The notes under the pieces: model-generated | What the model was told of the DNA's origin: nothing | Seen by the model: only the letters and a program-made list of their open reading frames with translations | Database searches by the model: none | Origin: Candidatus Phoenicimicrobium oleiphilum | GTDB taxonomy: Bacteria > Atribacterota > Phoenicimicrobiia > Phoenicimicrobiales > Phoenicimicrobiaceae | Reading direction: 5' to 3' | Length of the DNA: 64,000 nucleotides | NCBI GenBank assembly: GCA_039638295.1 | Contig: JBDIWJ010000005.1 | Span: 416-64,415, forward strand | Translations under genes and position numbers: made by a program | Shown: positions 325 through 36,638 of the stretch, piece after piece | Layout: every line of letters starts with the position of its first letter | Numbering within the stretch: position 1 is the stretch's first letter

Positions 325-522
325 TTACCCCCCAGCAATTGAATGGATGACCTGAACATCATCATTATCCTTAATTAAAGTATCTTTGTATTTTTCCTTG
401 GGAATATATTTTCCATTGACCTTTACTATTATTAAGGGAAAAGAATATTTACATTTTTTCAGCAGAAGATCAACGGTTAAATTTTCTTCCCATTCTCTAT
501 CTCTTCCATTTACTTTAATCAT
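325..522 (-). CDS. ThiS/MoaD-family sulfur-carrier protein (65 aa, C-terminal Gly-Gly)
   Basis: Small beta-grasp-like sequence ending in IAGG-GG; overlaps by 4 nt with upstream AOR gene (translational coupling). Confidence 0.6.
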   Translation of the reverse strand: MIKVNGRDREWEENLTVDLLLKKCKYSFPLIIVKVNGKYIPKEKYKDTLIKDNDDVQVIHSIAGG

Positions 523-2684: not shown

Positions 2685-2849
2685 TGAGCAATTTCCCCCA
2701 TTAATCTACTTAATCAAATAAAATATGTTTAAAAAATCTGTTTTCTCTAAACTCCACCAGATAAGGTTAATGAAGCCACCTTATCATCTTAAAAACCAGG
2801 ATACGATGGCTTCATTTTTGATTTTACCAATTATAAAACTAAATATGCT

Positions 2850-4529
2850 TTAAACTTCTTTTGCTTCCTTTACCTGAAGCTCAGGTAGAGGGAACGAAAT
2901 TCCAGCTGATTTTGCTGAAATACTGGAAAATAGGTAAAGCAAAATTCCTACCAATATTATTCCTAAAGGCAACACTAAAGCAACAGACATGCCACTTCCC
3001 GCCAAAATATAGCCCACTACAGCAACTCCCGCAGCAGTTAGGGAATAAGGTACCTGAGTCTTAACATGATCTATATGGTCAGAACCAGAAAACATTGAAG
3101 ACATAATAGTAGTATCAGAAAGTGGTGAACAATGGTCTCCCATAACTGAACCGGTTAATACCGCAGATATGCCTAAAGGTAAAGGAACACCCAAAGCAAG
3201 GGCTAAAGGAATAGCAATAGGCATAGCTATAGCCATAGTCCCCCAAGAAGTACCAGTGGAAAAAGAAATTATATTGCAGATTATAAATATAACCATAGGT
3301 AGTAAAACGGGAGAGATAACCCCTTTAGCAGCATTTACTACATAAGGAGCAGTTCCAATTTCATCACAAACACTACCAATTGACCAAGCAGAAATTAAGA
3401 TTAAGTTAGCTAAAACCATCATCTTAGCACCATCTATAAAGGCATCCATCATATCAGCCAGGGTTCCAATCCCCTGGGCTTTATACATTATTATGGCAAC
3501 GATTACTGCAAATACAGCGCCCCACAAAAGAGCAGTCATAGCATCAGCATCAGCAATTGCAGTAGTAAATGATTCAGCAGAGGTCCCTCCTCCAGTCCAC
3601 CACATTCCGAAAATACTCACTCCTACCAGAACTATAATGGGAACAACCATATTTATGGTCTTTTGAGGAACGCCTTCTAATACCTTTAATTTACTCCCCC
3701 CAGAAAGTGGAGTTGCTCCATCTGCAAAGACTTTACCAGTTGTCCTTGTTCGATGTTCAGCTTTTAACATAGGACCATAATCTCTTTGAGATAAGGCAAC
3801 AAATAAGACTAATAATATTGCAAAGATACTGTAGAAACGATAAGGTATAGATTGTAAAAAGATGGTATAAGGAGTCAGGGATACCGAAGTACCTTCGATA
3901 GCATCACCGATAAGTCCCACCTCATAGCCAATCCAGGTAGAAATCAGAGCTAGAGAAGCAACTGGTGCTGCAGTAGAATCGACAATGTAAGAAAACTTTT
4001 CTCGAGAAATACCCAATTTGTCGGTCACTGGTCTAAAAGCATTTCCCACTATAGCAGTATTAGCATAATCATCAAAGAAAATTATTAACCCAAAGAGCCA
4101 AGCAGTAAATTGGCCGCCGCGAGCGGTTTTTACTTTATCGGTAATGCTTTTTACAAAGGCATAAGCCCCACCAGATAGGTAGATTAAACCGATAAGTCCT
4201 CCAACTACAAAGTCAAACAATAAAATAGTAGCATTCCAACTGTCAGCAGTATTATCTACCAGGTAACCTAGGGTTTGAGTAACCCCAGCTAAAGGATTCC
4301 AACCCGTCAGTATAGTAGCACCTATCCAGATACCAATAAAGAGTGAGGCTAAAACTTGCTTGGTGATAAAGCATAAAACTATGGCTACCAATGGTGGTAA
4401 TAGAGATAAGAAACCATAACTTGCTGCAGTTTCTTCTTCTGCAGCCCAGGCAATTTCAGATAAGATAAAGAAAATTACTATCGAAAAAATTAAAAGCAAT
4501 CCAATTCTATTCTTGTGCCATTGATACAT
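2850..4529 (-). CDS. NhaC-family Na+/H+ antiporter-type membrane transporter (candidate LysW-like lysine transporter)
   Basis: 559 aa polytopic membrane protein with NhaC-like repeat architecture; last gene of a co-directional block downstream of a lysine riboswitch. Confidence 0.55.
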   Translation of the reverse strand: MYQWHKNRIGLLLIFSIVIFFILSEIAWAAEEETAASYGFLSLLPPLVAIVLCFITKQVLASLFIGIWIGATILTGWNPLAGVTQTLGYLVDNTADSWNATILLFDFVVGGLIGLIYLSGGAYAFVKSITDKVKTARGGQFTAWLFGLIIFFDDYANTAIVGNAFRPVTDKLGISREKFSYIVDSTAAPVASLALISTWIGYEVGLIGDAIEGTSVSLTPYTIFLQSIPYRFYSIFAILLVLFVALSQRDYGPMLKAEHRTRTTGKVFADGATPLSGGSKLKVLEGVPQKTINMVVPIIVLVGVSIFGMWWTGGGTSAESFTTAIADADAMTALLWGAVFAVIVAIIMYKAQGIGTLADMMDAFIDGAKMMVLANLILISAWSIGSVCDEIGTAPYVVNAAKGVISPVLLPMVIFIICNIISFSTGTSWGTMAIAMPIAIPLALALGVPLPLGISAVLTGSVMGDHCSPLSDTTIMSSMFSGSDHIDHVKTQVPYSLTAAGVAVVGYILAGSGMSVALVLPLGIILVGILLYLFSSISAKSAGISFPLPELQVKEAKEV

Positions 4530-4629
4530 TCTGAATTCACTCTCCTTTCTTTGTTTTAAGAATAAAAATTCACATAATTCAATTGCAAGCTAGACTTTTA
4601 AATATTTAAGCATTTTTAAACCTTCTAAA

Positions 4630-5955
4630 TCACCTCCTATCTTTAATTTTTTCGTTCAGGATTTCTTCTAAATCTGGTCTGCCAATTTCCTGTAATTCAT
4701 ATCTTACTCTTACTGATTTCTTGTTGATCTTAATAATTCGAGTTAGGTCTATAGGGGTACCAACGATCACTATATCGCAATCAGTAGAATTTATAGTATC
4801 TTCCAGTTCCTGAATCTGTTTTTTGCCATACCCCATTGCCGGTAATAATGTCCCTATCCCCGGATATTTAATATAAGTATCTTTAATACTGCCTACTGCA
4901 TAAGGTCGAGGATCTATAATCTCTTTTGCCCCAAACTTTTGAGCAGCTACTATACCTGCACCATACTTCATTTCTCCATGGGTTAATGTAGGCCCATCTT
5001 CAACTACCAGCACCCTTTTACCCCTAATAAGTTCGGGATAATCCACAGTAAGAGGGGAGGCAGCTTCAACTAAAATAGCATTAGGAGCAAGTTGATAGAT
5101 ATTTTCTCTGAGTAAATTTATTTTATCTGGTACAGCAGTATCTATTTTATTCATTACTACCACATCTGCCATTCTGAGATTTGCCTCTCCAGGATAGTAA
5201 GTCATTTCATGACCGGCTCGATGGGGGTCAGTAACAACAATATGCAAATCTGGTTTATAAAAGGGAATATCATTATTACCTCCATCCCAGATGATTATAT
5301 CTGCATCTTTTTCAGCTCTGGTTAATATCTCTTGATAATCGACTCCAGCATAAAGGATATTTCCTCTATCCAGATGAGGTTCATATTCTTCCCTTTCTTC
5401 AATAGTACAGTTGTAGCGGTCTAAATCGGAATAATTTTCATATCTTTGACAGATCTGTTCTTTTAGATCACCATAGGGCATTGGATGCCTGATTACAGCT
5501 ATTTTATAACCTTTCTTCTTCAAAATATCTGTAACTTTGCGAGTAGTCTGACTCTTGCCGCAACCAGTTCTAACTGCACAAATAGATACCACGGGCAGAT
5601 TGGACTTTAACATAGTACTCTTGGGTCCCATTAATCTAAAGTCCGCCCCACTGGCTAAAACTATTGAAGCTTTATCCATAACATATTGATGCGAAAGATC
5701 GCTATAAGCTAAAATTACCTGGTCAATCTGCTTCTCCCTTATTAGTGCAGGCAATTCTTCTTCGGGATATATAGGTATACCTTCGGGATATAAAGACCCA
5801 GAAAGTTCAGCGGGATATTTTCTACCGGCAATATCCGGAATTTGAGTAGCGGTAAAGGCAACTACCTCATAACCAGAATTATTTCTAAAATACACATTAA
5901 AATTATGGAAATCTCTTCCAGCAGCTCCCATAATTAAAACTTTAATTTTACTCAT
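4630..5955 (-). CDS. COG2403/DUF1611-like P-loop protein (cyclic 2,3-diphosphoglycerate synthetase-like predicted GTPase/ATPase)
   Basis: N-terminal Rossmann-like MSKIKVLIMGAAGRD, central Walker-A-like CAVRTGCGKSQTT; function not assignable from sequence. Confidence 0.4.
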   Translation of the reverse strand: MSKIKVLIMGAAGRDFHNFNVYFRNNSGYEVVAFTATQIPDIAGRKYPAELSGSLYPEGIPIYPEEELPALIREKQIDQVILAYSDLSHQYVMDKASIVLASGADFRLMGPKSTMLKSNLPVVSICAVRTGCGKSQTTRKVTDILKKKGYKIAVIRHPMPYGDLKEQICQRYENYSDLDRYNCTIEEREEYEPHLDRGNILYAGVDYQEILTRAEKDADIIIWDGGNNDIPFYKPDLHIVVTDPHRAGHEMTYYPGEANLRMADVVVMNKIDTAVPDKINLLRENIYQLAPNAILVEAASPLTVDYPELIRGKRVLVVEDGPTLTHGEMKYGAGIVAAQKFGAKEIIDPRPYAVGSIKDTYIKYPGIGTLLPAMGYGKKQIQELEDTINSTDCDIVIVGTPIDLTRIIKINKKSVRVRYELQEIGRPDLEEILNEKIKDRR

Positions 5956-6043
5956 TAAAATTCCTCCGTTTTATATTATATAATAATTATTCGACAAAAC
6001 TTTTTAAATTCCTCTTTTTTTTACCTATTTTTTCAATTTTTTA

Positions 6044-7348
6044 TCAAACTTTAGCTATTGCCTTCTCTAACACCTCTAAGGCCTCATCCAACTGCTCATC
6101 AGTAATCTCTAAAGAGACCAACATTCTCAAAACATTCTTGTTAATCCCTGCGCCAGCAATAAGTACTCCATTTTTTACACATTCCTGTATAACTTGAGCT
6201 GTCTCTTGGGTGGCTGGTTCTTTAGTCTTTCGGTCTTTTACCAGTTCTATAGCCATCATCGCCCCTATACCACGCACATCACCTACTATAGAATATCTAT
6301 CTTTCATCTTAAGAAAACGCTCTTTCAATCTTTCCCCAATCTTCAAGGCTCTTTCTAAGAGTTGTTCTTCTTCGATAATTTTTATCACCTCCAGGGCTGC
6401 CCGGCAGGCTAATGGATTACCTACATAGGTTCCACCAATACACCCGCCAGGAAGGGTATCGGTAATCTCTTTTTTGGTAATTACTGCCGAAAGAGGAAGG
6501 CCAGAAGCTAAAGACTTGCCCAGACAGATAAGGTCTGGCTCTATATTCCAGTTTTCTATGGCATAAAACTTTCCAGTCCGACCTATACCACTCTGAATCT
6601 CATCGGTGATAAGTAACATACCGTATTTCTCGGTCAATTCTCTTAAATATTCTAAAAATCCCTCCTGAGGGACATTAAATCCTCCTTCTCCCTGGATAGG
6701 TTCAACCACTATAGCAGCGACAGAGTCAGGGATTACAGTATTTACCAGTATCTTTTCAAAATCTTCTATATCAGCCATAGGATGAGAAGAACTGGGGAAA
6801 GGTAAGCGATATATCTCGGGGGCAAAGGGTCCGAAGTGGTATTTATAAGGCATAGCCTTGTGGGTCATAGTCATAGTAAGCAAAGTGCGACCATGGAAGG
6901 CATTTTCGAAGACAATAATAGCTGGTCTTTTGGTATGTGCCCTGGCAATCTTTACCGCATTTTCTATTGCCTCTGCTCCGGAGTTAAAAAAGGCGGCTGA
7001 CTTGGGAGTGCTCCCGGGGGCCAACTTAACTAATTTTTCAGCCAGTTCTACCAGAGGCTCGTAAGGGACAGCAGTAAAATCGGTATGCAGATATTTTTCT
7101 GCCTGGTCTTTAATAGCAGCTACCACTTTCTTGTGGGTATGGCCTACGGCCAGACATCCCCAGCCTCCAGTAAGATCGATTAATTGATTACCATCTACGT
7201 CAGTGACTAAAGCCCCCTCTCCATAGGCAATATAACAGGGGGAAAGAGAACCGCTCATAGGTTTGGCTACATACTTTTCTCTTTTTTTAGCAATTTCTTG
7301 AGATTTTGTTCCAGGTAGACTGGTTTTAAGAGAAATAAATTTACTCAT
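6044..7348 (-). CDS. Class-III PLP-dependent aminotransferase (GabT/acetylornithine/DABA aminotransferase family)
   Basis: Motifs ITDEIQSGIGRTGKFYA and LICLGKSLASGLPLSAV (PLP-lysine region) typical of class-III aminotransferases. Confidence 0.8.
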   Translation of the reverse strand: MSKFISLKTSLPGTKSQEIAKKREKYVAKPMSGSLSPCYIAYGEGALVTDVDGNQLIDLTGGWGCLAVGHTHKKVVAAIKDQAEKYLHTDFTAVPYEPLVELAEKLVKLAPGSTPKSAAFFNSGAEAIENAVKIARAHTKRPAIIVFENAFHGRTLLTMTMTHKAMPYKYHFGPFAPEIYRLPFPSSSHPMADIEDFEKILVNTVIPDSVAAIVVEPIQGEGGFNVPQEGFLEYLRELTEKYGMLLITDEIQSGIGRTGKFYAIENWNIEPDLICLGKSLASGLPLSAVITKKEITDTLPGGCIGGTYVGNPLACRAALEVIKIIEEEQLLERALKIGERLKERFLKMKDRYSIVGDVRGIGAMMAIELVKDRKTKEPATQETAQVIQECVKNGVLIAGAGINKNVLRMLVSLEITDEQLDEALEVLEKAIAKV

Positions 7349-7556
7349 TTAATCATTCTCCTTTAATCTAAATTTTTAATTAGTTAATAGTAAATAATCG
7401 CTGGTCGTTAGTTTAAAAATCAAAACTTTTTTCGTATAAATTATTGCTTTTTTACTCCATTTCGATTTTATATAAATCTTTTCCTGACAATCTTGTTAGA
7501 ATAAATATACTGTCTTTTAAACTTGTGCCCGTGAAAACGGGTAAAAGTATCCTTGT

Positions 7557-7591
7557 AAGAGCATCGGAATTTTAGAAATTCCGATGCTCTT
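7557..7591. terminator. 35-nt perfect palindrome (16-bp stem) 20 nt downstream of the stop of the 7613-8857 gene; intercistronic terminator/attenuator or protein-binding site
   Basis: AAGAGCATCGGAATTT-TAG-AAATTCCGATGCTCTT read directly; no clean U-tract on the mRNA strand. Confidence 0.4.
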
Positions 7592-7612
7592 AAATTATCT
7601 TTTAGTACCTTA

Positions 7613-8857
7613 TTATATCTTTTGAGAAACCTCAAGTATATTTATCTTTCTTCTTTTCAATTCTTCCAAGAAGTTCTGATAGACTTTTCCTTCTATAGCA
7701 TCCTCAGGAGCAACTATGCCCTTCTTGGTTATCTCTCCTTTTCCTAACATCACAGTAGTGATAGCCTCTGGAAAAGCAGTAACTCTTGCCATTGCTGAAA
7801 TACCATTCTCAGTATCTGCCTCCTCCCACATATAATAATCAATTCTCATTTTTTGGCTATCTTTTATCCCGGTAACTGTATTCCACATTACACATACATC
7901 AGTTTCACCTTCTAATGGTTTAAGTTTAGGTGTCATTATAAAGGACAAAAACTCACGGGGAGTAATTTTCATACTTTTAAATTCTACCGGAGTAGAATCT
8001 AACATTCCACATTCCTTCAATACCTTCGCCCCCTCCCAGTGACCTGGCCAACGAATGGTCTTCTCTGCACATTCTTTAAGTTGTGGTCTGGTATAAAGAA
8101 AGCTGGGCATCCCCGGAGTAATGGCGCAGGTTAATTCTTCATCTTTACCTAATTGATTAAATCGAAACTTTTCAAGATCATCCATTGCATTTGCTTCTAC
8201 GATTTTACCATTCTTGATTACATCTACCTTGATCATATATTCTCTTAAAACATGCTCAAATGCCCAGGTAATCATATATTTTAAAGGATGATTGTTAGCA
8301 TATTCTTTTGCCGGAATACCCCCACATCTGGCTATGGCTGATTCTGCCTGGCTCATTTTTTTGATTCCTTCACCTAAAGTAATATTAGTTAACCCTGGAG
8401 CAAAACCTGCTCCATCAACAATAGTCACTCCATTCTTTATTGCTCTTTGGTGGAGTGATTCACCATATTCATCCAGGGTCATCCCATCAGGAATTTCTAA
8501 TCCTTCAACCTCATATTTATCTGGTCTTCTATGATACTCTTCCAAAATATCAACAATATTAAGTCCAGCCTCCACAGCCATATTTACTACTTTGTAGCTA
8601 CTTCTTCTATCTGGCAGAGCAATTGCGCCTACATCATATTTTTCCATTAATTTCATAGTCTCTTTTCGATTGTTTACGTCAACAATATGTAATACTACCT
8701 TATCACTGCCTATCCATTTTTTAGTCTTTTCCAGGGTATTCTCTCTCCTACCAGTAATTCCTATAATTCCTACTTCTCCAACTTTGCTGTTTTTAGCCAA
8801 ATCCCAGGCAACTGCTGAACCCATTTTGCCTGAGCCTCCAAAAACTAAAACCTTCAT
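7613..8857 (-). CDS. Saccharopine dehydrogenase-family NAD(P)-binding oxidoreductase (paralog 1; LysDH/saccharopine reductase/carboxy(nor)spermidine DH-like)
   Basis: N-terminal Rossmann MKVLVFGGSGKMGSAVA, GFAPGLTNI motif, 414 aa; first gene after a lysine riboswitch. Confidence 0.7.
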   Translation of the reverse strand: MKVLVFGGSGKMGSAVAWDLAKNSKVGEVGIIGITGRRENTLEKTKKWIGSDKVVLHIVDVNNRKETMKLMEKYDVGAIALPDRRSSYKVVNMAVEAGLNIVDILEEYHRRPDKYEVEGLEIPDGMTLDEYGESLHQRAIKNGVTIVDGAGFAPGLTNITLGEGIKKMSQAESAIARCGGIPAKEYANNHPLKYMITWAFEHVLREYMIKVDVIKNGKIVEANAMDDLEKFRFNQLGKDEELTCAITPGMPSFLYTRPQLKECAEKTIRWPGHWEGAKVLKECGMLDSTPVEFKSMKITPREFLSFIMTPKLKPLEGETDVCVMWNTVTGIKDSQKMRIDYYMWEEADTENGISAMARVTAFPEAITTVMLGKGEITKKGIVAPEDAIEGKVYQNFLEELKRRKINILEVSQKI

Positions 8858-9099
8858 ATATTTTTCCTCCTTCTTTGGTTATTTAGTTATTAAAACAGTC
8901 GATAGTGAATAGTCGTTAGTCGTTAGTTTAAAACTCAAAACTTTTTCGTATAAGATATTGCTCTTAAAGTAGGGGTCGGATTTATTCGACCTGTTTTTAT
9001 TGCGGGTTCGATTAATGAGCACTTACGATAACAGGAAATTCCTATACCATTTAGTTAACTAGCTATCTTTAAGATGACATTTGCTAATAAAAAATCTAC

Positions 9100-9365
9100 C
9101 AAATAAAAAAGGCAATTAATGATAGAGCCTTCATTAATTGCCTAACTTTGTTCCCCCTAATTTAGATGAAGTACTCTATCTTGAGGTAGCGCTCCATCTA
9201 AATCGGGGGACAGATTTGATGACAGTCTTATAGTTATTCACTATAAGCCCAGCAAGAAGATTTTATCTGATCTTTCTTGCTTCGGCGGAAATACCTTTCT
9301 GGGCAAAGTTCTAAACTATTCACCCTTACTCATTATTATCCGCGCCTCTACCTTGTATTATTTTA
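9100..9365 (-). promoter_or_regulatory. Lysine riboswitch (L-box) with intrinsic-terminator expression platform
   Basis: On minus strand: GGTAGAGGCGCGG ... CGCCGAAGCAAG ... CTGGGCTTATAGTGAATAA ... AGACTGTCATC ... GGAGCGCTACCTC (L-box conserved blocks), then antiterminator GATAGAGTACTTCATC and terminator GGCAATTAATGA-AGGCTCTATC-ATTAATTGCC followed by TTTTTTATTT (9105-9142 on + strand). Confidence 0.8.
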
Positions 9366-9485
9366 AATACAAGTAAATATTAATTTGTGAAACTTATTTT
9401 AGTAGACTTAAATTCTTAAATTACCACCTCCTCATTTAATCTACCAATTATACAATTGACCAATTTACCAATCAAATTAATGTAA

Positions 9486-10622
9486 TCACACTTTAATTAT
9501 ATTTTCTTTATAGAACACATTTCTTTTTTCTAATTCTTTCATTACCCTCTGATATACTTTATGTTCCCTGCCTATATATTCTGGAGGAGAAATCCCTTTA
9601 CGGGAATATTCTCCCTGAGCTACCAGGCGAGCCATAATTGCACAGGGAAAACCAGTCGTACGTGACATAGAGGTAGCTTCCTCATTCTCGTCATAATAAT
9701 CTAATAAATCATAGATATAACATAGTCTTTTTTCTTCTTTCTTACCTTGAACAATTACCCTCATCACTGTTAACTCTCTTTCTCCTTCTTTTAATCCCCA
9801 TTTGGAAAAAAGCAATTTAGAGGCAACATCTATAGGGCTGACTTTTACCCCTCCTGCTTCTATAGGTTTTTCATTAAAAAATCCTGTCTCTCTTAACATC
9901 CGCATCTTTTCCGCATACCCTGGATAACGCAAGGTCTTCTCTCTCATAGAGGGAATTTTAATGGTGTAAAGTAGACTACGAAGTCCATCAGTATTAAAAG
10001 CTTCTAAAGTACCAATTCCTGGTAAATCAACCAATTCAAGATCAGAAAGCGCGGGTTTTTCTACAATTTTTCCGCATTCAATTAATCTTGCCGGTCTTAT
10101 ATATTCTTCTATAACATCTTTAGGAGACCAGGCAATTTTATATTCATAAGGCCATTCTCTTATTACTGGAAGCCCTCCTACTAAAATAGTAGCACTCTCG
10201 GTTTTATCCAACAGGCTATAGACATAACCTACAATCATATGACTCATCCCCGGAGCTACTCCCATATCCACCACAGCAGTTACTCCTCTACTTTTAGCAA
10301 GCCCATCCAGGCTTAAAGTATCTTCAGCCATAAATGATATATCAACTATGTTCTTACCAGCTTCAATAACCGACCGCAACATATTAAATCCTAAAAACCC
10401 TGGAACAGCACCAATTACAATATCTTGATCAGCAACTATCTTTTTAATATCACTCGAAACAGATAAATCTGCTTTTACACCTCTTATTCCTGCATCTTTT
10501 GTTAACTTATCCAATCTTTTTTCATCAATATCTGCTACAGTTACTTGAATATTTTTATCTTTTGCTAAATCTTTGGCAATTAATCCGCCTACCAAACCAC
10601 AACCCAGTACTATTGCTTTCAT
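9486..10622 (-). CDS. Saccharopine dehydrogenase-family NAD(P)-binding oxidoreductase (paralog 2)
   Basis: N-terminal MKAIVLGCGLVGGLIAKDLA Rossmann fold, 378 aa, same family as 7613-8857 but divergent. Confidence 0.7.
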   Translation of the reverse strand: MKAIVLGCGLVGGLIAKDLAKDKNIQVTVADIDEKRLDKLTKDAGIRGVKADLSVSSDIKKIVADQDIVIGAVPGFLGFNMLRSVIEAGKNIVDISFMAEDTLSLDGLAKSRGVTAVVDMGVAPGMSHMIVGYVYSLLDKTESATILVGGLPVIREWPYEYKIAWSPKDVIEEYIRPARLIECGKIVEKPALSDLELVDLPGIGTLEAFNTDGLRSLLYTIKIPSMREKTLRYPGYAEKMRMLRETGFFNEKPIEAGGVKVSPIDVASKLLFSKWGLKEGERELTVMRVIVQGKKEEKRLCYIYDLLDYYDENEEATSMSRTTGFPCAIMARLVAQGEYSRKGISPPEYIGREHKVYQRVMKELEKRNVFYKENIIKV

Positions 10623-10649
10623 ACTTTTATTGTTTCCTTTCCTTATTTT

Positions 10650-12023
10650 CTATTTATCGCTTACTAAAAGTTTCATATATTCTCCGATTTCATTGATATT
10701 CTCTAATTCCTTAGTGGCTTTTATAATATCCTCCATTCTGGAAGGAGAGATTTTTTTCTCAGAGTTGGCTTTAAATTTAGAAATAAGTTCTTCTTCGCTT
10801 AGAGGCCGCTCCGATTGGCCTTTGGCGAAATCTTCCTGTTTTTTATATTCTCCCTTGGAAGTTTTAATGGTCACAATAGCTCGTTTTACTTTGGGGAAGA
10901 GGGCATCTATTTCAGGGTTGGCTATTACCTTAATCTTTTCGAGCAATGACCAGACAAAAGGGTCTCGTAAGGCATCTTCTTCAAAATCAGAAGGAAGGAC
11001 ATTGCCCTTAGCTACTGCAACTGCTATACAGTAGGGTAGTGAATGGTCAGCAGTCTCTTTAGTAGTAGGTTTATATTTACTGGGGTCAGAAAGAATATCT
11101 GCCCCCCGAGTTGTAGTCTCTACTAAAACTTCTTTTACTTCTTTTGGGTCAATACTATTTTCTTGCATAACTTCTAAAGCAGCAGTAATGGGCTGATGAG
11201 TTAAAGCTTCAGTGGGAAAAGCTTTATAACCACATTGATTAATCAGAAATTTTTCTCCTAATCCTTTGGTTAAAACATCTCTATCCCATTTTACTTTATC
11301 CAATACTTCAAACAATCCTTCTTTACCTTCAAATACTTCTACCGGACCGGTATAACCTCTGCTGGCCAGTAAGGCAGCCCGTACACCCGCCTCCACAGCG
11401 AAAGGATCGGCCGCATTTTTCATATTAGTAAGATGACCGGCTACTACTCCTCCTAAAGTAAAATGAGAAGAACCGCTAATCCCGAGGGCAGCGACTATCT
11501 CATCTTCGCTTAGTTCCAACATCCTTCCGGCTACTACAGGACTTACCAATTGAGTTAGGGTTGCATGATGCCAGCCTATCTCCCGAACTCCCGGGGAAGC
11601 AGCCTGACATAGACGCATCTCTAATTCATAAGCAATCACTATCCCCAACAGTACTTCTTCCCCATTTTTCTTCATAAATTCTCCAGTACTAAGGACGGCA
11701 GGGATAATATCTGAAGGATGGGAGGGATCTTGTTCCCAGTAGATGTCATTATAATCCAAAGCCCTAATAAGTAAGGAATTCAACAAAGTAGCTAGTGGCA
11801 AATTGGTTTTCTCTCCCCACCCAATAACAGTACTTTGTTTCTTTCCACCTAAATCTCGAATGTAATTATAAGCTGCTTGGGTATCTTTATTATTCAAAGC
11901 AGAAAAGGCACACCCCACACTATCTAAAAGAAACCTTTTAGCCTCTTTTATAGCTACAAAAGGAATATCTTTATAATTTAATCCGAGGGTAAACTTAGCC
12001 CATTTTTGACTTATGGTCTCCAT
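10650..12023 (-). CDS. MmgE/PrpD-family dehydratase (2-methylcitrate dehydratase-like)
   Basis: 457 aa; N-terminal FLLDSVGCAFSA and overall MmgE/PrpD architecture. Confidence 0.75.
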   Translation of the reverse strand: METISQKWAKFTLGLNYKDIPFVAIKEAKRFLLDSVGCAFSALNNKDTQAAYNYIRDLGGKKQSTVIGWGEKTNLPLATLLNSLLIRALDYNDIYWEQDPSHPSDIIPAVLSTGEFMKKNGEEVLLGIVIAYELEMRLCQAASPGVREIGWHHATLTQLVSPVVAGRMLELSEDEIVAALGISGSSHFTLGGVVAGHLTNMKNAADPFAVEAGVRAALLASRGYTGPVEVFEGKEGLFEVLDKVKWDRDVLTKGLGEKFLINQCGYKAFPTEALTHQPITAALEVMQENSIDPKEVKEVLVETTTRGADILSDPSKYKPTTKETADHSLPYCIAVAVAKGNVLPSDFEEDALRDPFVWSLLEKIKVIANPEIDALFPKVKRAIVTIKTSKGEYKKQEDFAKGQSERPLSEEELISKFKANSEKKISPSRMEDIIKATKELENINEIGEYMKLLVSDK

Positions 12024-12255
12024 TTTTTCACCTTCCTTTTAATTTGGTTAGTTGATTACCTAGTTACCTGGTTCGCTAGTTAACCGGTCTTCTAGTCATT
12101 TCAGTCGTTAACCTCTACTGTATAGGTTTGAATTTATTCGACCAAAATTATTTGGTAATCTTTTTAGCGGGCTCGATGAATCGAGCCCCTACTTCTGGCT
12201 TCTGGATCTTTAACTCGTAACCTGTAATTTATAACCCATTACTTATTACTCATTA

Positions 12256-13383
12256 CTAATTACTTTGTATTTTTCTGGCTACTTCCCTGGCTACATCTAA
12301 AGTTGAGGCTGTTCCGCCTAAATCATAGGTCCTGACTTTTCCTTCCTCAATGACCTGAGCAATAGCATTTTCTAATCTTTGAGCCAATTCTTTTTCCCTT
12401 AAGTAATCCAACATTAATTTAACTGTTAAAAGCATGGCCATAGGATTTACTTTATACTGCCCTGCATACTTAGGAGCAGAGCCATGAGTAGGCTCAAAGA
12501 CGGCATAGTCATCACCAATGTTAGCACTAGAGGCAAAACCTAAACCTCCTACCAATTGTGCACATAAGTCAGAAATTATATCGCCGAACATATTAGAAGA
12601 AACCAAGACACTATAATTTTGAGGGTTCTTAACCAACCACATACACATTGCATCTACATTGGTTTCCCACAATTCAATCCCGGGATATTCTTGAGCAATC
12701 TTACGAGCTTCTCTTATCATTAATCCACTGGTTTCTCTGATTACATTAGGTTTTTCCACAACTGTAACTGAATTCCTTTTAAACTTCTTAGCATATTCGA
12801 AGGCTTGTCGAACAATTGATTGGCAAGCTTTTCTGGTAAAAATTCGGCAGGATAGAGCAATATCTTCTAAAGGAGTATCTTTGAATCTTTTCATTTTAGG
12901 ATGATTTTTTAAAAGAGAATCCATTACTTCTTTAGGTAGAGGATGAAATTCTATCCCACTGTATAACCCTTCGGTATTTTCTCGAAAAACTACCAAATCT
13001 ATATCGTCTCTATAATTCAAAGGATTTCCTTTGTAGGCTTTGCAGGGTCTCAGGTTAGTATGTAACTTAAATTCCTGGCGTAATCTTACAATAGGGCTCG
13101 AATAGACATAACCCTTTCCTTTAACTTCAGGAGCAAGTTCCTTTTCTGCTTCCTCTTTAGGTTTAGAGGTTATTGCTCCAAAGAGACAACAATCAGTTTC
13201 TTTAAGAATTTTTATGGTCCTATCAGGTAAAGGGTTTCCTTCTTTTTTCCAAAATTTCCAACCAACATCGCCGGGTATATAATCAGCATCCAGTTTTAGC
13301 ACATCTAATACGATCTTCGCTGCCTCCATTACATCATTTCCGATTCCATCACCCGGCAGCCAGGCTATCTTATATTTTGCCAT
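12256..13383 (-). CDS. Isocitrate/isopropylmalate dehydrogenase-family enzyme (LeuB/homoisocitrate DH-like)
   Basis: N-terminal IAWLPGDGIGNDV, 375 aa beta-decarboxylating dehydrogenase fold. Confidence 0.8.
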   Translation of the reverse strand: MAKYKIAWLPGDGIGNDVMEAAKIVLDVLKLDADYIPGDVGWKFWKKEGNPLPDRTIKILKETDCCLFGAITSKPKEEAEKELAPEVKGKGYVYSSPIVRLRQEFKLHTNLRPCKAYKGNPLNYRDDIDLVVFRENTEGLYSGIEFHPLPKEVMDSLLKNHPKMKRFKDTPLEDIALSCRIFTRKACQSIVRQAFEYAKKFKRNSVTVVEKPNVIRETSGLMIREARKIAQEYPGIELWETNVDAMCMWLVKNPQNYSVLVSSNMFGDIISDLCAQLVGGLGFASSANIGDDYAVFEPTHGSAPKYAGQYKVNPMAMLLTVKLMLDYLREKELAQRLENAIAQVIEEGKVRTYDLGGTASTLDVAREVARKIQSN

Positions 13384-13386
13384 TTT

Positions 13387-13890
13387 TTATTCTCCCTTCT
13401 CTGCTCTCAATATTTTTTTAATATGAGGAATAAGCCCCCCATCTTTAAGAATTCCTAATACCGATTCCGGTAAAGGAGGGAAATTAAAAACTCCCTTTTT
13501 ACAAGATAATTCGCCTTTCTCGAAATCAATAGTAATCTCCTCACCCGGAGATACATTTTCCGCTGCTTCTTTACACTGAACCAGGGGAAGTCCCTGATTA
13601 ATAGCATTTCGAAAAAATATTCGAGAAAATGATTTGGCAACAATTGCTCCTACACCGGCATATTTTAGGCAGGTTGCGGCTTGTTCCCGAGAACTACCAC
13701 AGCCAAAGTTCCTTCCCGCGACAATAATATCTTCCTTTTTAACTTCTTTGGCAAACTTCGGATCAAGGTCTTCTAGGGCATGAAGAGCCATCTCTTTGGG
13801 GTCTGTTATGGTATAAGTATATTTCCCCGGAAAAATAACATCGGTATTTACATCATCGCCATATTTCCATACTTTTCCTTTAATACTCAT
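13387..13890 (-). CDS. 3-isopropylmalate dehydratase/homoaconitase small subunit (LeuD-like)
   Basis: 167 aa aconitase swivel domain; overlaps the large-subunit gene by 4 nt. Confidence 0.8.
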
Positions 13891-15146
13891 TTTAAATCCC
13901 CCCTTATATCAGTAATTTCACCGTAAAGGGAAGAGATAGCGACGGTTGCCGGACTAGCTAAGTAAACTTCTGCCTCTTTACAGCCCATCCTTCCTTTAAA
14001 ATTTCTATTAGCTGTACTCAAGCAAACTTCTCCCGGAGCTAAGGCCCCTTCGTGAGCTCCTAAACAAGGGCCACATCCCGGATTCATTATTACTGCCCCA
14101 CTTTTAACTAATTCCTGAAGGATTCCTAATTCCATCGCCCGGGCAAAGACCTCCATCGAGGCCGGAAAGACTAAAAGTCTAACTCCGTTAGAAATCTTTT
14201 TACCACGAAGAATCTCGCTGGTAATTTTTAAATCTTCTATCCTTCCGTTGGTACAGGTCCCAATTAATGCTTGGTTAATCTTGGTCCCTGCCACTTCCGA
14301 AACAGGTTTTACATTGTCTACTGTGTGAGGGCAGGCAATTTGAGGTTCTAAACTACTTATATCGTAATCTATGATTTTTTCATACTCAGCATCAGTATCT
14401 GACTTTATTATTTCGTATTTTTTATTGGTTCTTGCGGTAAGCCACTGTATGGTTTTTTCATCCGGTTCTACATAGCCGATCTTTGCTCCCATCTCCACCG
14501 CCATATTGCATAGAGTCATCCTGCCCCCGATATCCATATCCCTAATTACTTTTCCGCTAAATTCTACTGCCCTATACAATGCTCCATCCGCACCTAAATC
14601 CCCAATAATGTGGAGGATTATGTCCTTGGGATATATTCCGGGGGGAATTTCCCCTTTAATATTTATTTTAATAGTCTCCGGCACTCTAAGCCAGATTTCA
14701 TCTGTAGCCCATATAGAAGCTACTTCACTTCTGCCAATCCCAGTTGAAAAAGCACCAAATGCTCCATAAGTAGTGGTATGTGAGTCGGCTCCTAAAATTA
14801 AAGTCCCTGGAAGTACATAACCCTTTTCCGGTAAAACCTGATGGCAGACTCCGGTATTAATATCATAAAAATTTTCAATTTTCTGTTCCTGGATAAATTC
14901 TCTTATCTCTTTATGATTAGTAGCATATTTCTCTGTTGCTGCCGGAACACAATGATCTAGAGGTATTACTATTTTTTCAGGATGTTTTACCTTATCAATT
15001 CCAATCTGATTGAATTTTTTGGCTATAGCAGCAGTATTATCGTGAGACATTACTATATCCGGAGATACAGTTACAATTTCTCCAGCAATTACACTTCCCT
15101 TACCCGATTTAAGAGCTAATATTTTCTCTGCAAAGGTTTTTCCCAT
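13887..15146 (-). CDS. 3-isopropylmalate dehydratase/homoaconitase large subunit, short (archaeal-type, ~420 aa) LeuC-like
   Basis: Aconitase-family Cys ligand region (GTCTNGR...GCGPCLG), 419 aa. Confidence 0.8.
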
Positions 15147-15160
15147 TTTTACCCTTCTCC

Positions 15161-15691
15161 TTATCTAAATTGTTCGAAGTTAGTAAAATCAGCATGATGA
15201 ACAATAATGGCTTCCGGGATTCTCTTAGAACGATCTCCTTCCCAGGAATGAGAGGCAATAATATGCATTACTTCTTCCGGAATTCCTTGACTGTAACAAA
15301 GACCTACTCCGGATATAGGATGACGTACCAGCTTCCCCAAATTACTCTGAATAAATTTTCCGTTCTTCTCTTTATATTCTACTAACTTCCCAATATCGTG
15401 AAGCAATGCCCCGGCAATAAGATAATCCTCATTTATTTTCACTTTATCTTCATAGATGCTTTGAAGAGCTTTCGCCGCCCCTATCGAAACATTTACTACT
15501 CCCCTAATATGTTCAATCATACTACAAGGACAGGGATCAATTAATAAAGTAAAAGGCATTCTCTGCAGGTCACTCACTTTCCATCCCCCAGCAGCAAGAG
15601 CAATCTCCCAAACTTTCAAAACCTTTTCCTTCAAATCTGAATCTTTGATTAAATTAAATTCCGGAATAAATTTTAATAAATCATCTCTCAT
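15161..15691 (-). CDS. HD-domain phosphohydrolase
   Basis: HD motif (LLHDIGK ... HHAD) in 176-aa protein. Confidence 0.65.
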   Translation of the reverse strand: MRDDLLKFIPEFNLIKDSDLKEKVLKVWEIALAAGGWKVSDLQRMPFTLLIDPCPCSMIEHIRGVVNVSIGAAKALQSIYEDKVKINEDYLIAGALLHDIGKLVEYKEKNGKFIQSNLGKLVRHPISGVGLCYSQGIPEEVMHIIASHSWEGDRSKRIPEAIIVHHADFTNFEQFR

Positions 15692-15702
15692 CTTTTCCCT
15701 CC

Positions 15703-16032
15703 TTATTCCTCGTAAGGTATTTTGATCTCCAAAAGTGGAGCGTGTTGTTGAGCACCATAAACATCAGTCTCCCCGATGCTGCCTGAATCTACTGGCCTTA
15801 CAATAGTTGCTTTTATAGCATTAGCGGGGTCAAATTCTACAAAATAAAGAACTTTTTCGATGGGAACATGGTAAAGTTTGGCAATAAGTTCTTTGGTAAT
15901 TACTTTGGTTTTCTTGACTTTTTCGTAAGTTTCCTTGTCTTTAAAAATTATATCAAAGGTCAACTCAAAGGGGCCAGCATTTTTACTTCTGATTACGCTT
16001 GCTAAGTCTATAATAGAAACCTCTTTAGTCAT
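15703..16032 (-). CDS. Small DUF4387-like protein (partner of AtuA-like DUF1446 proteins)
   Basis: 109 aa, directly downstream of and co-oriented with a DUF1446-like gene; assignment by recalled family pairing. Confidence 0.4.
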   Translation of the reverse strand: MTKEVSIIDLASVIRSKNAGPFELTFDIIFKDKETYEKVKKTKVITKELIAKLYHVPIEKVLYFVEFDPANAIKATIVRPVDSGSIGETDVYGAQQHAPLLEIKIPYEE

Positions 16033-16065
16033 TTATATACTCTCCTTTTTAAATTCCTTATTATT

Positions 16066-17424: not shown

Positions 17425-17504
17425 AATATATATCTCCTCACTTCTACAAGATTGTCAGGGGAGTGAGCTCCCCTCCCATTCTTAATACATTTTTCAATCT
17501 AATT

Positions 17505-20400: not shown

Positions 20401-20453
20401 TTATCCTTCCTCACTTTTCCTTAAAGTCTGCCTACAATTTTATTAAAAAAACA

Positions 20454-21836: not shown

Positions 21837-21999
21837 ATTTTATCCTCCGCATCGTTACTTTTCAACATTCCAGTTTATATTATGCCTAATATCTCTTGGG
21901 GGCACGATGCATTGTGTCTCTACACTACTGTTTTATTTACATTATAAGTTATAATTATATTATAGCTTAATACTGCTTCGTGGAAAAATTATTATTGGA

Positions 22000-22923: not shown

Positions 22924-22963
22924 ATTATCATCTCCTTTTAATTTAATTTTTATAACTCTTACC

Positions 22964-34246: not shown

Positions 34247-34335
34247 CTCTCCCCTCTCCCTCCTTGGATAAAATCTCTCTTATACTCTAATCGTTATTCT
34301 AATATAAATATAACGAAATGTAAAAATTTTCTCTA

Positions 34336-36562: not shown

Positions 36563-36638
36563 TTAGTTTAATCCTTTTTTTCTTTTATCGATTATCAATG
36601 ATTAAATTTTTTAAAATATCTTTAACTGGCTAAAATTT

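Follow-up and report, generated by a model that had tools for sequence, protein, structure and literature searches.

Does a gene cluster that joins 2-oxoacid chain-elongation enzymes to two saccharopine-dehydrogenase paralogs build lysine or dismantle it? The first-pass annotation of this Atribacterota DNA (64 kb, hereafter the window) had described the cluster at 2850-15146 and read it as a fungal-type aminoadipate/saccharopine biosynthesis, with lysine catabolism among the listed alternatives. Pfam and NCBIfam profiles recovered all protein families it had named at the positions assigned to them, every one of these genes lying on the minus strand, as do the remaining features of the locus described below. 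The functional unit is larger, covering approximately 325-18263, and includes genes absent from the earlier list, namely those for a P-loop protein, an aldehyde:ferredoxin oxidoreductase (AOR), a ThiS/MoaD-like ORF, and HD, DUF4387, AtuA and GntR/FCD proteins. The presence of the AtuA/DUF4387 pair upstream changes the interpretation of the cluster, and since the gene arrangement is conserved across Atribacterota genomes and metagenome contigs, it is no chance juxtaposition. From the gene identities, synteny and module swap observed here and the alternative RNA structures predicted, we conclude that lysine breakdown, rather than synthesis, is the most likely role, and we consider it likely that 325-18263 is an Atribacterota lysine catabolic locus feeding a 2-oxoacid. 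As a whole it is best explained as a two-module breakdown locus whose lower module is a reversed 2-oxoacid elongation, an explanation to which we give roughly even chances.

The upper module, composed of SDH1 and a riboswitch operon encoding SDH2, a class-III aminotransferase, the P-loop protein, NhaC, AOR and the ThiS-like ORF, would import lysine and then remove both amino groups. The lysine-6-dehydrogenase-like SDH1 (9486-10622; Sacchrp_dh_NADP/Sacchrp_dh_C) matched PDB 3ABI, the L-lysine 6-dehydrogenase of P. horikoshii (PMC10413350), over its full length (E 4e-65). Its start lies 27 nt past prpD, which places SDH1 in the first transcription unit. SDH2 (7613-8857), the first gene downstream of the riboswitch, encodes a divergent lysine-dehydrogenase/saccharopine-reductase member with the same Pfam domains (3ABI, E 3e-29); it shares 30% identity with SDH1, and its orthologs occur at 50-70% identity across many anaerobic phyla. 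The motifs following beta-2, VADID in SDH1 and GITGRR in SDH2, are read here as NAD-type and NADP-type fingerprints, respectively, and judged by sequence both proteins are of the Lys9/lysine-6-dehydrogenase type, neither being Lys1-type. The class-III (GABA-AT-like) aminotransferase (6044-7348; Pfam Aminotran_3) scored 497 bits with TIGR00700 (cut-off 506.65) and 384.8 with the 2-aminoadipate transaminase model (below 650). It is followed by the 441-aa P-loop protein (4630-5955), a distant relative of cyclic-2,3-diphosphoglycerate synthetase (weak cobW match; PDB 9SXB, E 1e-3) whose gene is syntenic throughout all long contigs, and by the NhaC-family transporter (2850-4529; Pfam Na_H_antiporter, 229 bits), a candidate lysine carrier. 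For the tungsten-type AOR family enzyme (519-2684; Pfam AFOR_N and AFOR_C; PDB AOR and FOR matches, E 1e-50 to 1e-45) we propose the oxidation of aminoadipate (or glutarate) semialdehyde. The ThiS/MoaD-like ORF downstream of AOR (325-522; 65 aa, PF02597) overlaps the AOR stop codon and ends in GG.

The lysine riboswitch itself is a strong match (9179-9358; full-length RF00168 model, 111.5 bits versus a gathering score of 30, E 7e-29), but its assignment to nhaC held only in part, as it lies immediately upstream of SDH2 and 4.6 kb, or three genes, upstream of nhaC, which can be under its control only through membership of the co-directional operon. A promoter-like site upstream of the aptamer (TTGATT-17-TATAAT, 9447-9475) was recognised by consensus match only. 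An intrinsic terminator (9100-9143) with a 13-bp stem, a conserved 8-nt loop and a U-tract is kept in 62 distinct leaders, its loop being nearly invariant. RNA folding and leader comparison delimited a switching segment (9145-9182), in which the strand GAUAGAGUACUUCAU is predicted to pair with the terminator apex as antiterminator, while the overlapping CUUCAUCUAAAUUAGGGGGA is predicted to pair with the P5 3' strand and loop as anti-aptamer strand. In the absence of lysine, this downstream segment would be bound by the aptamer's 3' half (P5 3' strand and loop, P1 3' strand) and could then not block the terminator, and transcription would stop; with lysine, the locked aptamer would free the segment to bind the apex of the terminator hairpin, resulting in read-through. 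When transcripts ended within the loop of the terminator, the unconstrained MFE structure contained the anti-aptamer helix and lacked the antiterminator in 40 of 56 leaders, and locking P1 and P5 produced the antiterminator in 55 of 56. Antiterminator energies in ten leaders ranged from -12 to -22 kcal/mol versus -12 to -17 for the terminator. The P5 loop covaried with its downstream partner (native -6.9 versus swapped -5.2 kcal/mol; 0 of 2000 permutations as low), and the antiterminator strands were conserved without covariation. When fully available, the terminator was on average 2.9 kcal/mol stabler than the antiterminator, and it appeared in the MFE of 54 of 56 full-length leaders with the aptamer locked, so the ON call hangs on co-transcriptional order. 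Classically, the lysine riboswitch is an OFF switch over biosynthesis and NhaC-type transporters, and an aptamer with a strong terminator before an NhaC-type carrier is the usual face of lysine-repressed operons. The folding models nonetheless lean towards a lysine-ON switch.

The lower module comprises the genes for the GntR protein, a CmlAB-like lyase, the HD protein and the LeuCD-like, IDH-like and PrpD-like enzymes. Its GntR/FCD-family regulator (17505-18263; Pfam GntR and FCD), which likely controls the first operon, had LldR, NanR and PdhR, all carboxylate-sensing regulators, as best NCBIfam matches, all below cut-off. Both subunits of the structurally solved CmlAB (PDB 9ERQ) are matched at approximately 50% identity, CmlA by the AtuA-family protein (16066-17424; Pfam AtuA; PDB 9ERQ_A/9EVF, E 8e-141, 49.7% identity, 437 aa) and CmlB by the DUF4387 protein (15703-16032; Pfam DUF4387; PDB 9ERQ_B, E 2.4e-31, 53% identity, 100 aa). 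CmlAB splits citramalate directly into pyruvate and acetate (bioRxiv 10.64898/2026.01.16.699985). By homology, we propose that the AtuA-family protein forms the large subunit of a lyase acting on a 2-alkylmalate (homocitrate?); an identity of 50% would also be compatible with a citramalate lyase in Atribacteria. In type-A loci, the HD-domain gene (15161-15691; Pfam HD) invariably separates the lyase genes from leuC. Both hydro-lyase subunits are of the short archaeal type. The LeuC/HacA-type large subunit of the aconitase family (13887-15146) exceeded the cut-off of TIGR01343 hacA_fam (579.8 bits; 385.7) and fell below those of HacA_Meth (527.8 versus 550) and LEU2 (495 versus 610). The LeuD/DmdB-type small subunit (13387-13890; TIGR02087, 198.6 bits) is structurally nearest to the M. 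jannaschii isopropylmalate/citramalate isomerase (E 1e-46; homoaconitase, 1.6e-39). Its non-canonical specificity loop, Y24-T-Y-T-I, is unlike those of MjHACN (YLRT, whose Arg is absent), MjIPMI (YLVY) and PhLeuD (YNLT), thus fitting neither homoaconitase nor isopropylmalate isomerase, and the Chloroflexota counterpart reads YMAT; the carbon skeleton is therefore maybe not homoaconitate and maybe not the same in both phyla. The beta-decarboxylating dehydrogenase of the isocitrate/homoisocitrate/isopropylmalate family (IDH-like; 12256-13383; Pfam Iso_dh), proposed to work as a reductive carboxylase, had the AksF2 homoisocitrate dehydrogenase as top NCBIfam model (360.6 bits, below 540) and NAD-isocitrate dehydrogenases as top PDB matches (E 4e-70), narrowly before homoisocitrate dehydrogenase (5e-64). 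It carries a Ser at what we take to be the position of the isocitrate-binding Ser of E. coli ICDH. The MmgE/PrpD-family protein (10650-12023; Pfam MmgE_PrpD_N and _C), whose gene is preceded by a 232-nt gap, had its best PDB matches (E 4e-28 to 4e-19) in the IRG1 homolog of B. subtilis, IDS epimerase, cis-aconitate decarboxylase and PrpD and is proposed as second hydratase/dehydratase; the earlier suggestion that it complements the LeuCD-type hydratase is still reasonable. None of the IDH-like, LeuC, LeuD and PrpD proteins reached an equivalog cut-off.

Among 61 recovered metagenome contigs bearing the same leader, 26 have the PrpD/IDH/LeuCD/lyase block ahead of SDH1 or, if that gene is missing, ahead of the riboswitch. 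In seven, from sister Atribacteria, a fermentation block occupies this position, with genes for a 2-oxoacid:ferredoxin oxidoreductase (OFOR alpha-beta-gamma), a phosphotransacylase (Ptb), butyrate kinase (Buk; 397.6 bits, above 289.1), an SSF transporter and IclR. The OFOR alpha subunit (530.7, above 411) has 2-oxoglutarate enzymes as its nearest named relatives. The replacement falls exactly at the SDH1 junction, and as one block is swapped for the other, both probably consume a 2-oxoacid. Deletions in some contigs have removed SDH1, SDH2 or the aminotransferase gene, losses that fit partly redundant nitrogen-removing steps. The link between lysine, the saccharopine-dehydrogenase family and 2-oxoacid chain chemistry noted in the first-pass annotation recurs independently in two Chloroflexota lineages, where IDH-like, HMG-CoA-lyase-like (283 bits, above 246, versus 75 bits for NifV), family III CoA-transferase, LeuC, LeuD and SDH2 genes form one operon; the IDH-like proteins of both phyla share 60% identity, insertions and the motif SPIVRxRQ. 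SDH2 is followed by OFOR alpha-beta-gamma in Dehalococcoidia and accompanied by acyl-CoA DH, ETF and DUF401 genes in Thermoplasmata, where an SDH1-like gene lies nearby. Outside these lineages, most SDH2 orthologs adjoin unrelated housekeeping genes.

In the route that we infer, including flux direction, substrates and the allocation of amino groups to enzymes, a lysine-6-dehydrogenase-type enzyme (or omega-aminotransferase) would convert lysine into 2-aminoadipate semialdehyde, the AOR would oxidise this to 2-aminoadipate, and a second deamination or transamination would yield a 2-oxoacid, most likely 2-oxoadipate. This 2-oxoacid may be shortened by chain-elongation enzymes in reverse with the CmlAB-type lyase acting last: reductive carboxylation by the IDH-like enzyme would give homoisocitrate, the LeuCD-like and PrpD-like hydro-lyases would turn it into homocitrate, a 2-substituted malate, and CoA-free cleavage would release acetate and 2-oxoglutarate, one carbon shorter and reusable as amino acceptor. 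If true, a reversed elongation ending in a newly described lyase would constitute an undescribed catabolic route. The specific passage through homocitrate is tentative and falls somewhat short of an even chance. Reducing power would be spent on the carboxylation and, unlike with OFOR/Ptb/Buk, no ATP would be gained directly at substrate level.

Aminoadipate-type biosynthesis, as first annotated, would run the lyase in reverse from acetate (or acetyl-CoA) and 2-oxoglutarate to homocitrate, employ PrpD, LeuCD and the IDH-like enzyme to reach 2-oxoadipate, the aminotransferase for aminoadipate, the AOR with reduced ferredoxin for the semialdehyde and the SDH paralogs for reductive amination to lysine, with a lysine-OFF riboswitch repressing the last steps and the uptake carrier. 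The cluster offers a gene for each of these steps, among them the acid-reducing AOR previously overlooked, and the Pfam domains encoded by the Chloroflexota operon (HMGL-like, aconitase, Iso_dh, Sacchrp_dh) are those of the fungal pathway; the putative NADP-type fingerprint of SDH2, the customary aptamer and terminator over an NhaC-type carrier and the terminator as equilibrium structure of full-length leaders would also suit it. We consider it quite improbable, given that the condensing position is occupied by a lyase in Atribacteria and by an HMG-CoA-lyase subfamily member with a CoA-transferase in Chloroflexota, and neither variant offers thioester hydrolysis to drive synthesis. The OFOR/Ptb/Buk replacement is an ATP-yielding degradative module, the modelled anti-aptamer helix would hide the antiterminator strand and not the terminator, the homoaconitase motif is absent from the LeuD loop, and the SDHs are of Lys9 type, with neither a Lys1-type enzyme nor LysW, LysX, LysZ or LysY genes found. 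A GntR/FCD regulator and a catabolic neighbourhood likewise argue for degradation: the rest of the 64-kb window is a catabolic island devoid of dap, lysA and leuA, with xanthine-DH-type enzymes, carbamate kinase, IorAB/ACS and transporters, and no HMGL-type, homocitrate or LeuA/NifV-type synthase was found among the window ORFs scanned, in agreement with the earlier report of no homocitrate synthase.

Within catabolism, the locus might instead hold two or more unrelated operons side by side, the first a C5-dicarboxylate/citramalate (or 2-oxobutyrate) operon under the GntR regulator, with a true citramalate lyase, citraconate/methylmalate isomerase, 3-methylmalate dehydrogenase and PrpD-type isomerase, and the second leading from lysine to aminoadipate, or to glutarate via 5-aminovalerate by the GABA-AT-like transaminase and AOR. 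Citramalate as substrate of the lyase's only characterised relative, the structural neighbour of the LeuD-like subunit, the gap before prpD, the separate promoter-like site and riboswitch before SDH2, and GABA-AT models as highest scores of the aminotransferase point in this direction. The short prpD-SDH1 spacing, the operonic union of SDH2 with IDH-like, LeuCD and lyase genes in Chloroflexota and a swap located precisely at the SDH1 junction render it unlikely. The reversed elongation might also operate one carbon lower, from 2-oxoglutarate through isocitrate and citrate to acetate and oxaloacetate, in a fermentation of glutamate and lysine-derived 2-oxoglutarate with enzymes possibly accepting C6 and C7 tricarboxylates. 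Oxaloacetate would then be taken by a GTP-dependent PEP carboxykinase encoded directly upstream of the GntR/FCD gene (18562-20400), and the leading PDB matches of the IDH-like protein and its presumed isocitrate-binding Ser are consistent with this. We regard it as very unlikely, as the regulator gene separates the PEP carboxykinase from the operon, the lysine link (SDH1 in the operon, riboswitch, OFOR swap) is explained less directly, and the best NCBIfam model of the dehydrogenase is an AksF-type homoisocitrate dehydrogenase.

All cluster genes of interest are encoded on the minus strand. In the direction of transcription, the locus opens with a GntR/FCD regulator gene (17505-18263), followed by genes for an AtuA-family protein (16066-17424), a DUF4387 protein (15703-16032), an HD-domain protein (15161-15691), LeuC-like (13887-15146) and LeuD-like (13387-13890) proteins, an Iso_dh-family dehydrogenase (12256-13383; IDH-like protein) and, after a gap of 232 nt, an MmgE/PrpD protein (10650-12023), with the first saccharopine-dehydrogenase-family gene, SDH1 (9486-10622), starting 27 nt past prpD. 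A promoter-like site (9475-9447), a lysine riboswitch (9358-9179) and an intrinsic terminator (9143-9110 plus U-tract) then precede the second paralog, SDH2 (7613-8857), a class-III aminotransferase (6044-7348), a P-loop protein distantly resembling cyclic-2,3-diphosphoglycerate synthetase (4630-5955), an NhaC-family transporter (2850-4529), an aldehyde:ferredoxin oxidoreductase (AOR, 519-2684) and a ThiS/MoaD-like ORF (325-522). The first-pass annotation had listed the gene families correctly, but had placed the riboswitch in front of nhaC and confined the unit to 2850-15146, whereas the element precedes SDH2 and the functional unit reaches beyond both ends.

A metagenome scan using a pattern for the P5 region of the aptamer returned 61 Atribacteria contigs, onto which the window proteins were mapped. 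In 26 contigs (type A), the PrpD/IDH/LeuCD/lyase block lies upstream of SDH1, and in two type-A contigs without SDH1 the prpD gene stands directly ahead of the riboswitch. Seven contigs (type B; L073, L077, L078, L089, L101, L130 and L131) carry a replacement block at the same junction, which encodes an IclR regulator, a sodium:solute symporter (SSF), a butyrate-kinase-family kinase, a phosphotransacylase and the alpha, beta and gamma subunits of a 2-oxoacid:ferredoxin oxidoreductase (OFOR). Both the kinase (397.6 bits, cut-off 289.1) and the OFOR alpha subunit (530.7 bits, cut-off 411) score above their family thresholds, and the closest named relatives of the OFOR are 2-oxoglutarate enzymes. 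The type-B block is a textbook fermentation module leading from a 2-oxoacid via acyl-CoA and acyl-phosphate to the acid and ATP, and judged from their gene content the type-B loci would carry out a lysine-to-glutarate-type fermentation. As the two blocks replace each other beside one and the same SDH1/riboswitch/SDH2 unit, the simplest explanation is a metabolite common to both. Modules of this anaerobic OFOR/phosphotransacylase/butyrate-type kinase kind lie beside SDH1 in sister Atribacteria and beside SDH2 in Dehalococcoidia, while the window itself holds the lyase/LeuCD/IDH/PrpD block in their stead; from the shared position, both would use the same presumed substrate. We consider this module swap the strongest argument for a catabolic locus whose upper part delivers a 2-oxoacid.

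Deletion variants were also present among the contigs: SDH1 is missing in two (L093, L105), SDH2 has an internal deletion in one (L076), and the aminotransferase is fragmentary or missing in four (L091, L097, L102, L112), which suggests that the nitrogen-removing steps are partly redundant. Natural variants affected in SDH1, SDH2 or the aminotransferase comprise these loci together with L086, L115 and L116; SDH2 is altogether absent in some, and L116 carries a different class-III aminotransferase (28% identity) after the riboswitch.

The riboswitch matches the L-box model RF00168 over model positions 1-182 with 111.5 bits (gathering threshold 30) and forms a complete, canonical five-helix aptamer, with P1 (AGGUAG/CUACCU) and P5 (CAUCAAA.../...UUUAGAUG) assigned from the Rfam alignment. 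Downstream of it lie three further elements, namely GAUAGAGUACUUCAU, which is complementary to the terminator apex (AUGAAGGCUCUAUC), an overlapping segment CUUCAUCUAAAU...GGGGGA, which is complementary to the P5 3' strand, the neighbouring binding-core GAG and the P5 loop, and the terminator. Across 62 distinct leader sequences, 56 of them fully analysable, the terminator hardly varies, loop included. Covariation was seen between the P5 loop and its partner: duplexes averaged -6.9 kcal/mol in native pairings compared with -5.2 kcal/mol in swapped ones, and none of 2000 permutations was as low, although this significance is overstated because the leaders are related sequences. No covariation was found within the antiterminator, both strands of which are nearly invariant. 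Equilibrium folding of full-length leaders did not discriminate, with the terminator present in the minimum free energy structure of 54 of 56 leaders even when the aptamer was locked; folding at the decision point and a forced two-structure comparison were used instead. With folding stopped at the terminator loop, 40 of 56 leaders had, when unconstrained, a minimum free energy structure with the anti-aptamer helix but lacking the antiterminator, whereas locking P1 and P5 yielded the antiterminator in 55 of 56, with a mean energy gap of 9 kcal/mol between the two states. Terminator and antiterminator have comparable energies; in the forced comparison, the terminator gains an average stability advantage of 2.9 kcal/mol as soon as it is available in full, so that the ON prediction depends on co-transcriptional order. 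Taken as modelled, the four-element platform of aptamer, anti-aptamer, antiterminator and terminator predicts activation by lysine, in contrast to the usual L-box members, which switch OFF. To our knowledge, lysine-activated L-boxes exist only as predicted cases, ahead of lysine fermentation (kam) operons. No L-box was detected outside Atribacterota, either in a regular-expression scan of loci L001-L071 or when eight non-Atribacteria loci were scanned with Rfam, and the riboswitch link is therefore lineage-specific. One Acetothermia locus with SDH2 (L028) carries a c-di-GMP-I-GGC riboswitch at 11827-11901 (68.7 bits), together with an aminotransferase ortholog (62% identity) in divergent orientation.

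The AtuA-family protein aligned with citramalate lyase subunit CmlA (PDB 9ERQ/9EVF) at E 8e-141 and 49.7% identity over 437 residues, and the DUF4387 protein with CmlB (PDB 9ERQ) at E 2.4e-31 and 53% identity over 100 residues; the two genes are adjacent (33 nt apart) and similar over their full length to chains A and B of 9ERQ. According to a 2026 preprint (bioRxiv 10.64898/2026.01.16.699985), the citramalate lyase of Raoultella planticola splits citramalate into pyruvate and acetate in a direct reaction, and an older paper describes a DUF1446 gene adjoining methylaspartate-pathway genes in Enterobacteria (PMC4682846). These matches suggest that an operon with LeuCD-, IDH- and PrpD-type genes opens with a putative CoA-independent 2-alkylmalate lyase, for which the expected chemistry is cleavage of a 2-hydroxy-2-alkylsuccinate to acetate and a 2-oxoacid. 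Unlike in Enterobacteria, where the partners are methylaspartate-pathway genes, the pair is here accompanied by LeuCD-, IDH- and PrpD-type and lysine genes, and we propose homocitrate rather than citramalate as its substrate. Scanning of 38 window ORFs revealed no LeuA/NifV-type synthase (HMGL-like protein), in line with the earlier remark that homocitrate synthase and aminoadipate reductase are missing from the window. Compared with the upper half of the aminoadipate pathway, coenzyme-B-type (Aks) elongation and LeuABCD, the locus employs the same three enzyme superfamilies for isomerization and beta-decarboxylating dehydrogenation, with methanogen HacA and AksF types as the closest curated models, but a lyase (or, in Chloroflexota, a lyase plus CoA-transferase) takes the place of the synthase, the LeuD specificity loop is non-canonical, and the proposed direction is degradative.

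Among the remaining lower-module proteins, LeuC passed subfamily models only (hacA_fam, 579.8 bits) and fell just short of HacA_Meth (527.8 vs 550). Inspection of the LeuD specificity residues, which the first-pass annotation had suggested as a check, revealed a loop Y24-T-Y-T-I that is not of the homoaconitase type: relative to YLRT in the homoaconitase HacB of M. jannaschii, it contains no Arg and one residue more, and the corresponding loops are YLVY in isopropylmalate isomerase and YMAT in the Chloroflexota LeuD proteins. The IDH-like protein was best matched by AksF2 HICDH (360.6 bits, cut-off 540), closely followed by the ICDH and IPMDH models, and isocitrate and homoisocitrate dehydrogenases are nearly tied as its best match in the PDB. 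The PrpD-like protein is a distant family member (79-102 bits for PrpD models with cut-offs of 458-950). With scores below cut-off and an unusual loop, none of the lower-module enzymes can be given a substrate-level name.

SDH1 aligned over its full length (residues 1-369) with the L-lysine 6-dehydrogenase of P. horikoshii (PH1688, PDB 3ABI; E 4e-65), whereas SDH2, which is 30% identical to SDH1, is a distant member (E 3e-29) of the superfamily that includes PH1688 and the Geobacillus enzyme LysEDH. We read SDH1 as NAD-type from an Asp past beta-2 and SDH2 as NADP-type from GITGRR at the post-beta-2 position, going by the general rules of the Rossmann fold. In Geobacillus LysEDH, the substrate is bound by H181, Y238, T240 and R242 (PMC6697735). 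The aminotransferase is GABA-AT-like and scored 385 bits on a class-III 2-aminoadipate transaminase model, below its cut-off. The AOR diverges from the rest of its family and is roughly as far from AOR structures as from FOR structures. FOR of P. furiosus favours C4-C6 acid semialdehydes, a preference that would suit aminoadipate or glutarate semialdehyde as AOR substrate.

The best 120 SDH2 matches listed in the homolog search were exclusively close Atribacteria relatives. A scan of species-representative genomes with SDH2 yielded 65 loci. The complete cluster is kept in Atribacterota, and outside this phylum SDH2 orthologs of 50-73% identity are spread over many anaerobic phyla of bacteria and archaea. 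Clustering of neighbours showed that most of these orthologs stand alone among housekeeping genes, e.g. tRNA synthetases, PGK and ABC transporters. Three contexts recur outside Atribacterota: two Chloroflexota lineages share an operon of genes for IDH-like and HMGL-like proteins, a family III CoA-transferase, LeuC, LeuD, SDH2 and a carbamoylase-type amidase; in Dehalococcoidia, SDH2 is followed by OFOR alpha, beta and gamma subunits; and in Thermoplasmata an acyl-CoA dehydrogenase, ETF and a DUF401 transporter lie beside SDH2, with an SDH1-like gene nearby. The Chloroflexota HMGL-like protein passed the HMG-CoA-lyase model (283 bits, cut-off 246) and scored 75 bits with NifV, and the IDH-like protein of that operon is 60% identical to that of the window and shares two insertions and an SPIVRxRQ motif with it. 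As SDH2 is tied to 2-oxoacid-consuming enzymes in other phyla, its substrate or attack position may differ from that of lysine 6-dehydrogenase.

From the module swap, the lyase and the ON-type platform, a lysine-inducible catabolic locus emerged as the best reading, which we regard as likely; lysine catabolism had been listed as one alternative in the first-pass annotation. For the chemistry, we tentatively propose a reverse elongation via a homocitrate-type intermediate, a route that would be new and that we consider a serious possibility, rated somewhat below an even chance. Lysine would enter through the NhaC-type carrier and undergo oxidative deamination at C6 through SDH1 and/or SDH2, or alternatively transamination. 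AOR, with ferredoxin accepting the electrons, would then oxidize the semialdehyde to 2-aminoadipate, which would be converted to 2-oxoadipate. In type A, 2-oxoadipate, CO2 and NAD(P)H would then give homoisocitrate, which would be isomerized via cis-homoaconitate to homocitrate and finally cleaved to acetate and 2-oxoglutarate. Of the two half-reactions, Thermus- and yeast-type homoaconitases catalyse only one, and two hydro-lyases, the LeuCD-type and the PrpD-type enzyme, are plausible for the isomerization. The Chloroflexota variant would use the CoA-transferase and a homocitryl-CoA lyase. All redox steps would proceed at the level of NAD(P)H or ferredoxin, presumably without the acyl-CoA dehydrogenase reaction that the glutaryl-CoA route includes. 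A literature search returned no description of this cluster, of homocitrate lyase or of homocitryl-CoA. The fullest version, an undescribed 'reverse aminoadipate' lysine degradation in Atribacteria (with a CmlAB-family homocitrate lyase) and some Chloroflexota (CoA-dependent, with a homocitryl-CoA lyase and acetyl-CoA in place of acetate), a lysine-ON riboswitch and SDH2 as a new 2-oxoacid-delivering activity, is more doubtful still, and we offer it as a conjecture.

One competitor is lysine biosynthesis of the aminoadipate/saccharopine type, the favoured reading of the first-pass annotation. Every step could be assigned if AOR served as an acid reductase, and AOR is indeed the only possible substitute in the window for an aminoadipate reductase of the Lys2/Lys5 type, of which none was found there. 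Such a pathway would, however, require the lyase to run in reverse without a driving thioester, the module swap to be a coincidence and the platform to be OFF. Moreover, neither a synthase nor a homoaconitase loop was found, and a Lys1-type (AlaDH-family) saccharopine dehydrogenase is likewise missing, both paralogs having Sacchrp_dh_NADP and Sacchrp_dh_C domains and a short Rossmann stretch as their sole AlaDh_PNT_C match. None of the LysW, LysX, LysZ, LysY, LysJ and LysK families occurs among the annotated window ORFs, and dap, lysA and leuA genes are absent from those scanned. A biosynthetic reading of the cluster is therefore not supported.

Two further suggestions of the first-pass annotation were rejected. 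Carboxy(nor)spermidine dehydrogenase has a His-Glu-Glu catalytic triad (PMC10413350); no such HEE motif was seen in the sequence of SDH1 or SDH2, the corresponding model NF043000 gave 39.8 bits for SDH1 against a cut-off of 800 and no match for SDH2, and no partner decarboxylase gene lies nearby, which argues against polyamine synthesis. Coenzyme-B elongation lacks AksA here, and besides HacA_Meth, the HacB (166-180 bits, below 230) and AksF (296-361 bits, below 500-540) models stayed under their cut-offs. That unrelated operons merely lie side by side is weakened by the position of SDH1 within the first operon and also by the Chloroflexota operon. The reverse pathway could conceivably act on 2-oxoglutarate and citrate instead, a notion favoured by the PEPCK gene adjoining the cluster. 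A methylcitrate cycle was also considered and rejected, as the window contains neither PrpB nor PrpC and the PrpD models scored far below cut-off.

If the proposal of lysine degradation by reverse elongation holds true, enzymes routinely annotated as leucine or lysine biosynthesis could shorten chains where a lyase replaces the synthase, and such genes in metagenomes of uncultured anaerobes would be read differently. Bypassing the acyl-CoA dehydrogenase reaction, with its high potential, would be an advantage for energy-limited fermenters that produce hydrogen, and lysine fermentation could be assigned to Atribacteria, which are dominant but poorly understood in subsurface sediments and digesters. 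For the recently solved AtuA/DUF4387 lyase family, this would mean a second role in physiology and probably another substrate, and the SDH2 family, widespread as a stand-alone gene, could be given a testable function. The leader itself would be a small, naturally occurring transcriptional switch turned on by lysine, which could serve as a tool and as a case in which to study how a single aptamer class is wired to opposite outputs.

The window beyond the cluster is a catabolic island. The other 45 kb hold genes for two molybdoenzymes of the xanthine-dehydrogenase type, accompanied by cofactor genes and an XdhC-type maturation protein, a set of carbamate kinase, OTCase-like and amidohydrolase genes, and genes for PEPCK, IclR regulators, transporters, and an indolepyruvate:ferredoxin oxidoreductase together with an ADP-forming acyl-CoA synthetase. 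Immediately upstream of the cluster (18562-23935), genes for a GTP-type PEP carboxykinase, a dihydroorotase/hydantoinase-like amidohydrolase, an ATCase/OTCase-fold transferase and a carbamate-kinase-like protein together look like a carbamoyl-compound fermentation set. The two xanthine-dehydrogenase-family sets (33458-44492) have large subunits of 769 and 800 aa, with FAD subunits, and are accompanied by the XdhC-type protein, a MoCF_biosynth protein and a class-V aminotransferase/desulfurase.

Several non-coding features were observed in addition. An approximately 100-nt 5'-UTR element (…TACGAAAAAGTTTTGAGTTTTAAACTAACGAC…) occurs in two copies (7348-7451 and 8863-8965; 74-77% identity), which abut the ribosome-binding sites of the aminotransferase and SDH2 genes on the 5' side. 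The SDH2 leader also contains a segment of about 170 nt with two small GC hairpins (8890-9060) that is variably present among Atribacteria leaders (compare L008, L009, L010, L044 and L053) and looks like a small REP/MITE-like insertion; a comparable hairpin pair lies in the gap between the IDH-like gene and prpD (12150-12200). Right past the SDH2 stop codon, a perfect 17-bp palindromic hairpin (7556-7592) without a U-tract on the coding strand may act as a processing or stabilizing element rather than a terminator, and the gap between SDH2 and the aminotransferase gene spans 263 nt, compared with about 110-330 nt in other Atribacteria loci. Periodic intergenic runs of AATTGGTA-type octamers occur at 97-136, 9430-9475, 30627-30698 and 39758-39797, the second run lying in the stretch with the riboswitch's promoter-like site; they may bind a regulator or act as a UP-like element. 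Finally, a direct repeat of about 290 nt (61300-61583 and 63336-63618; 85-89% identity), with copies 2 kb apart, flanks two small ORFs.
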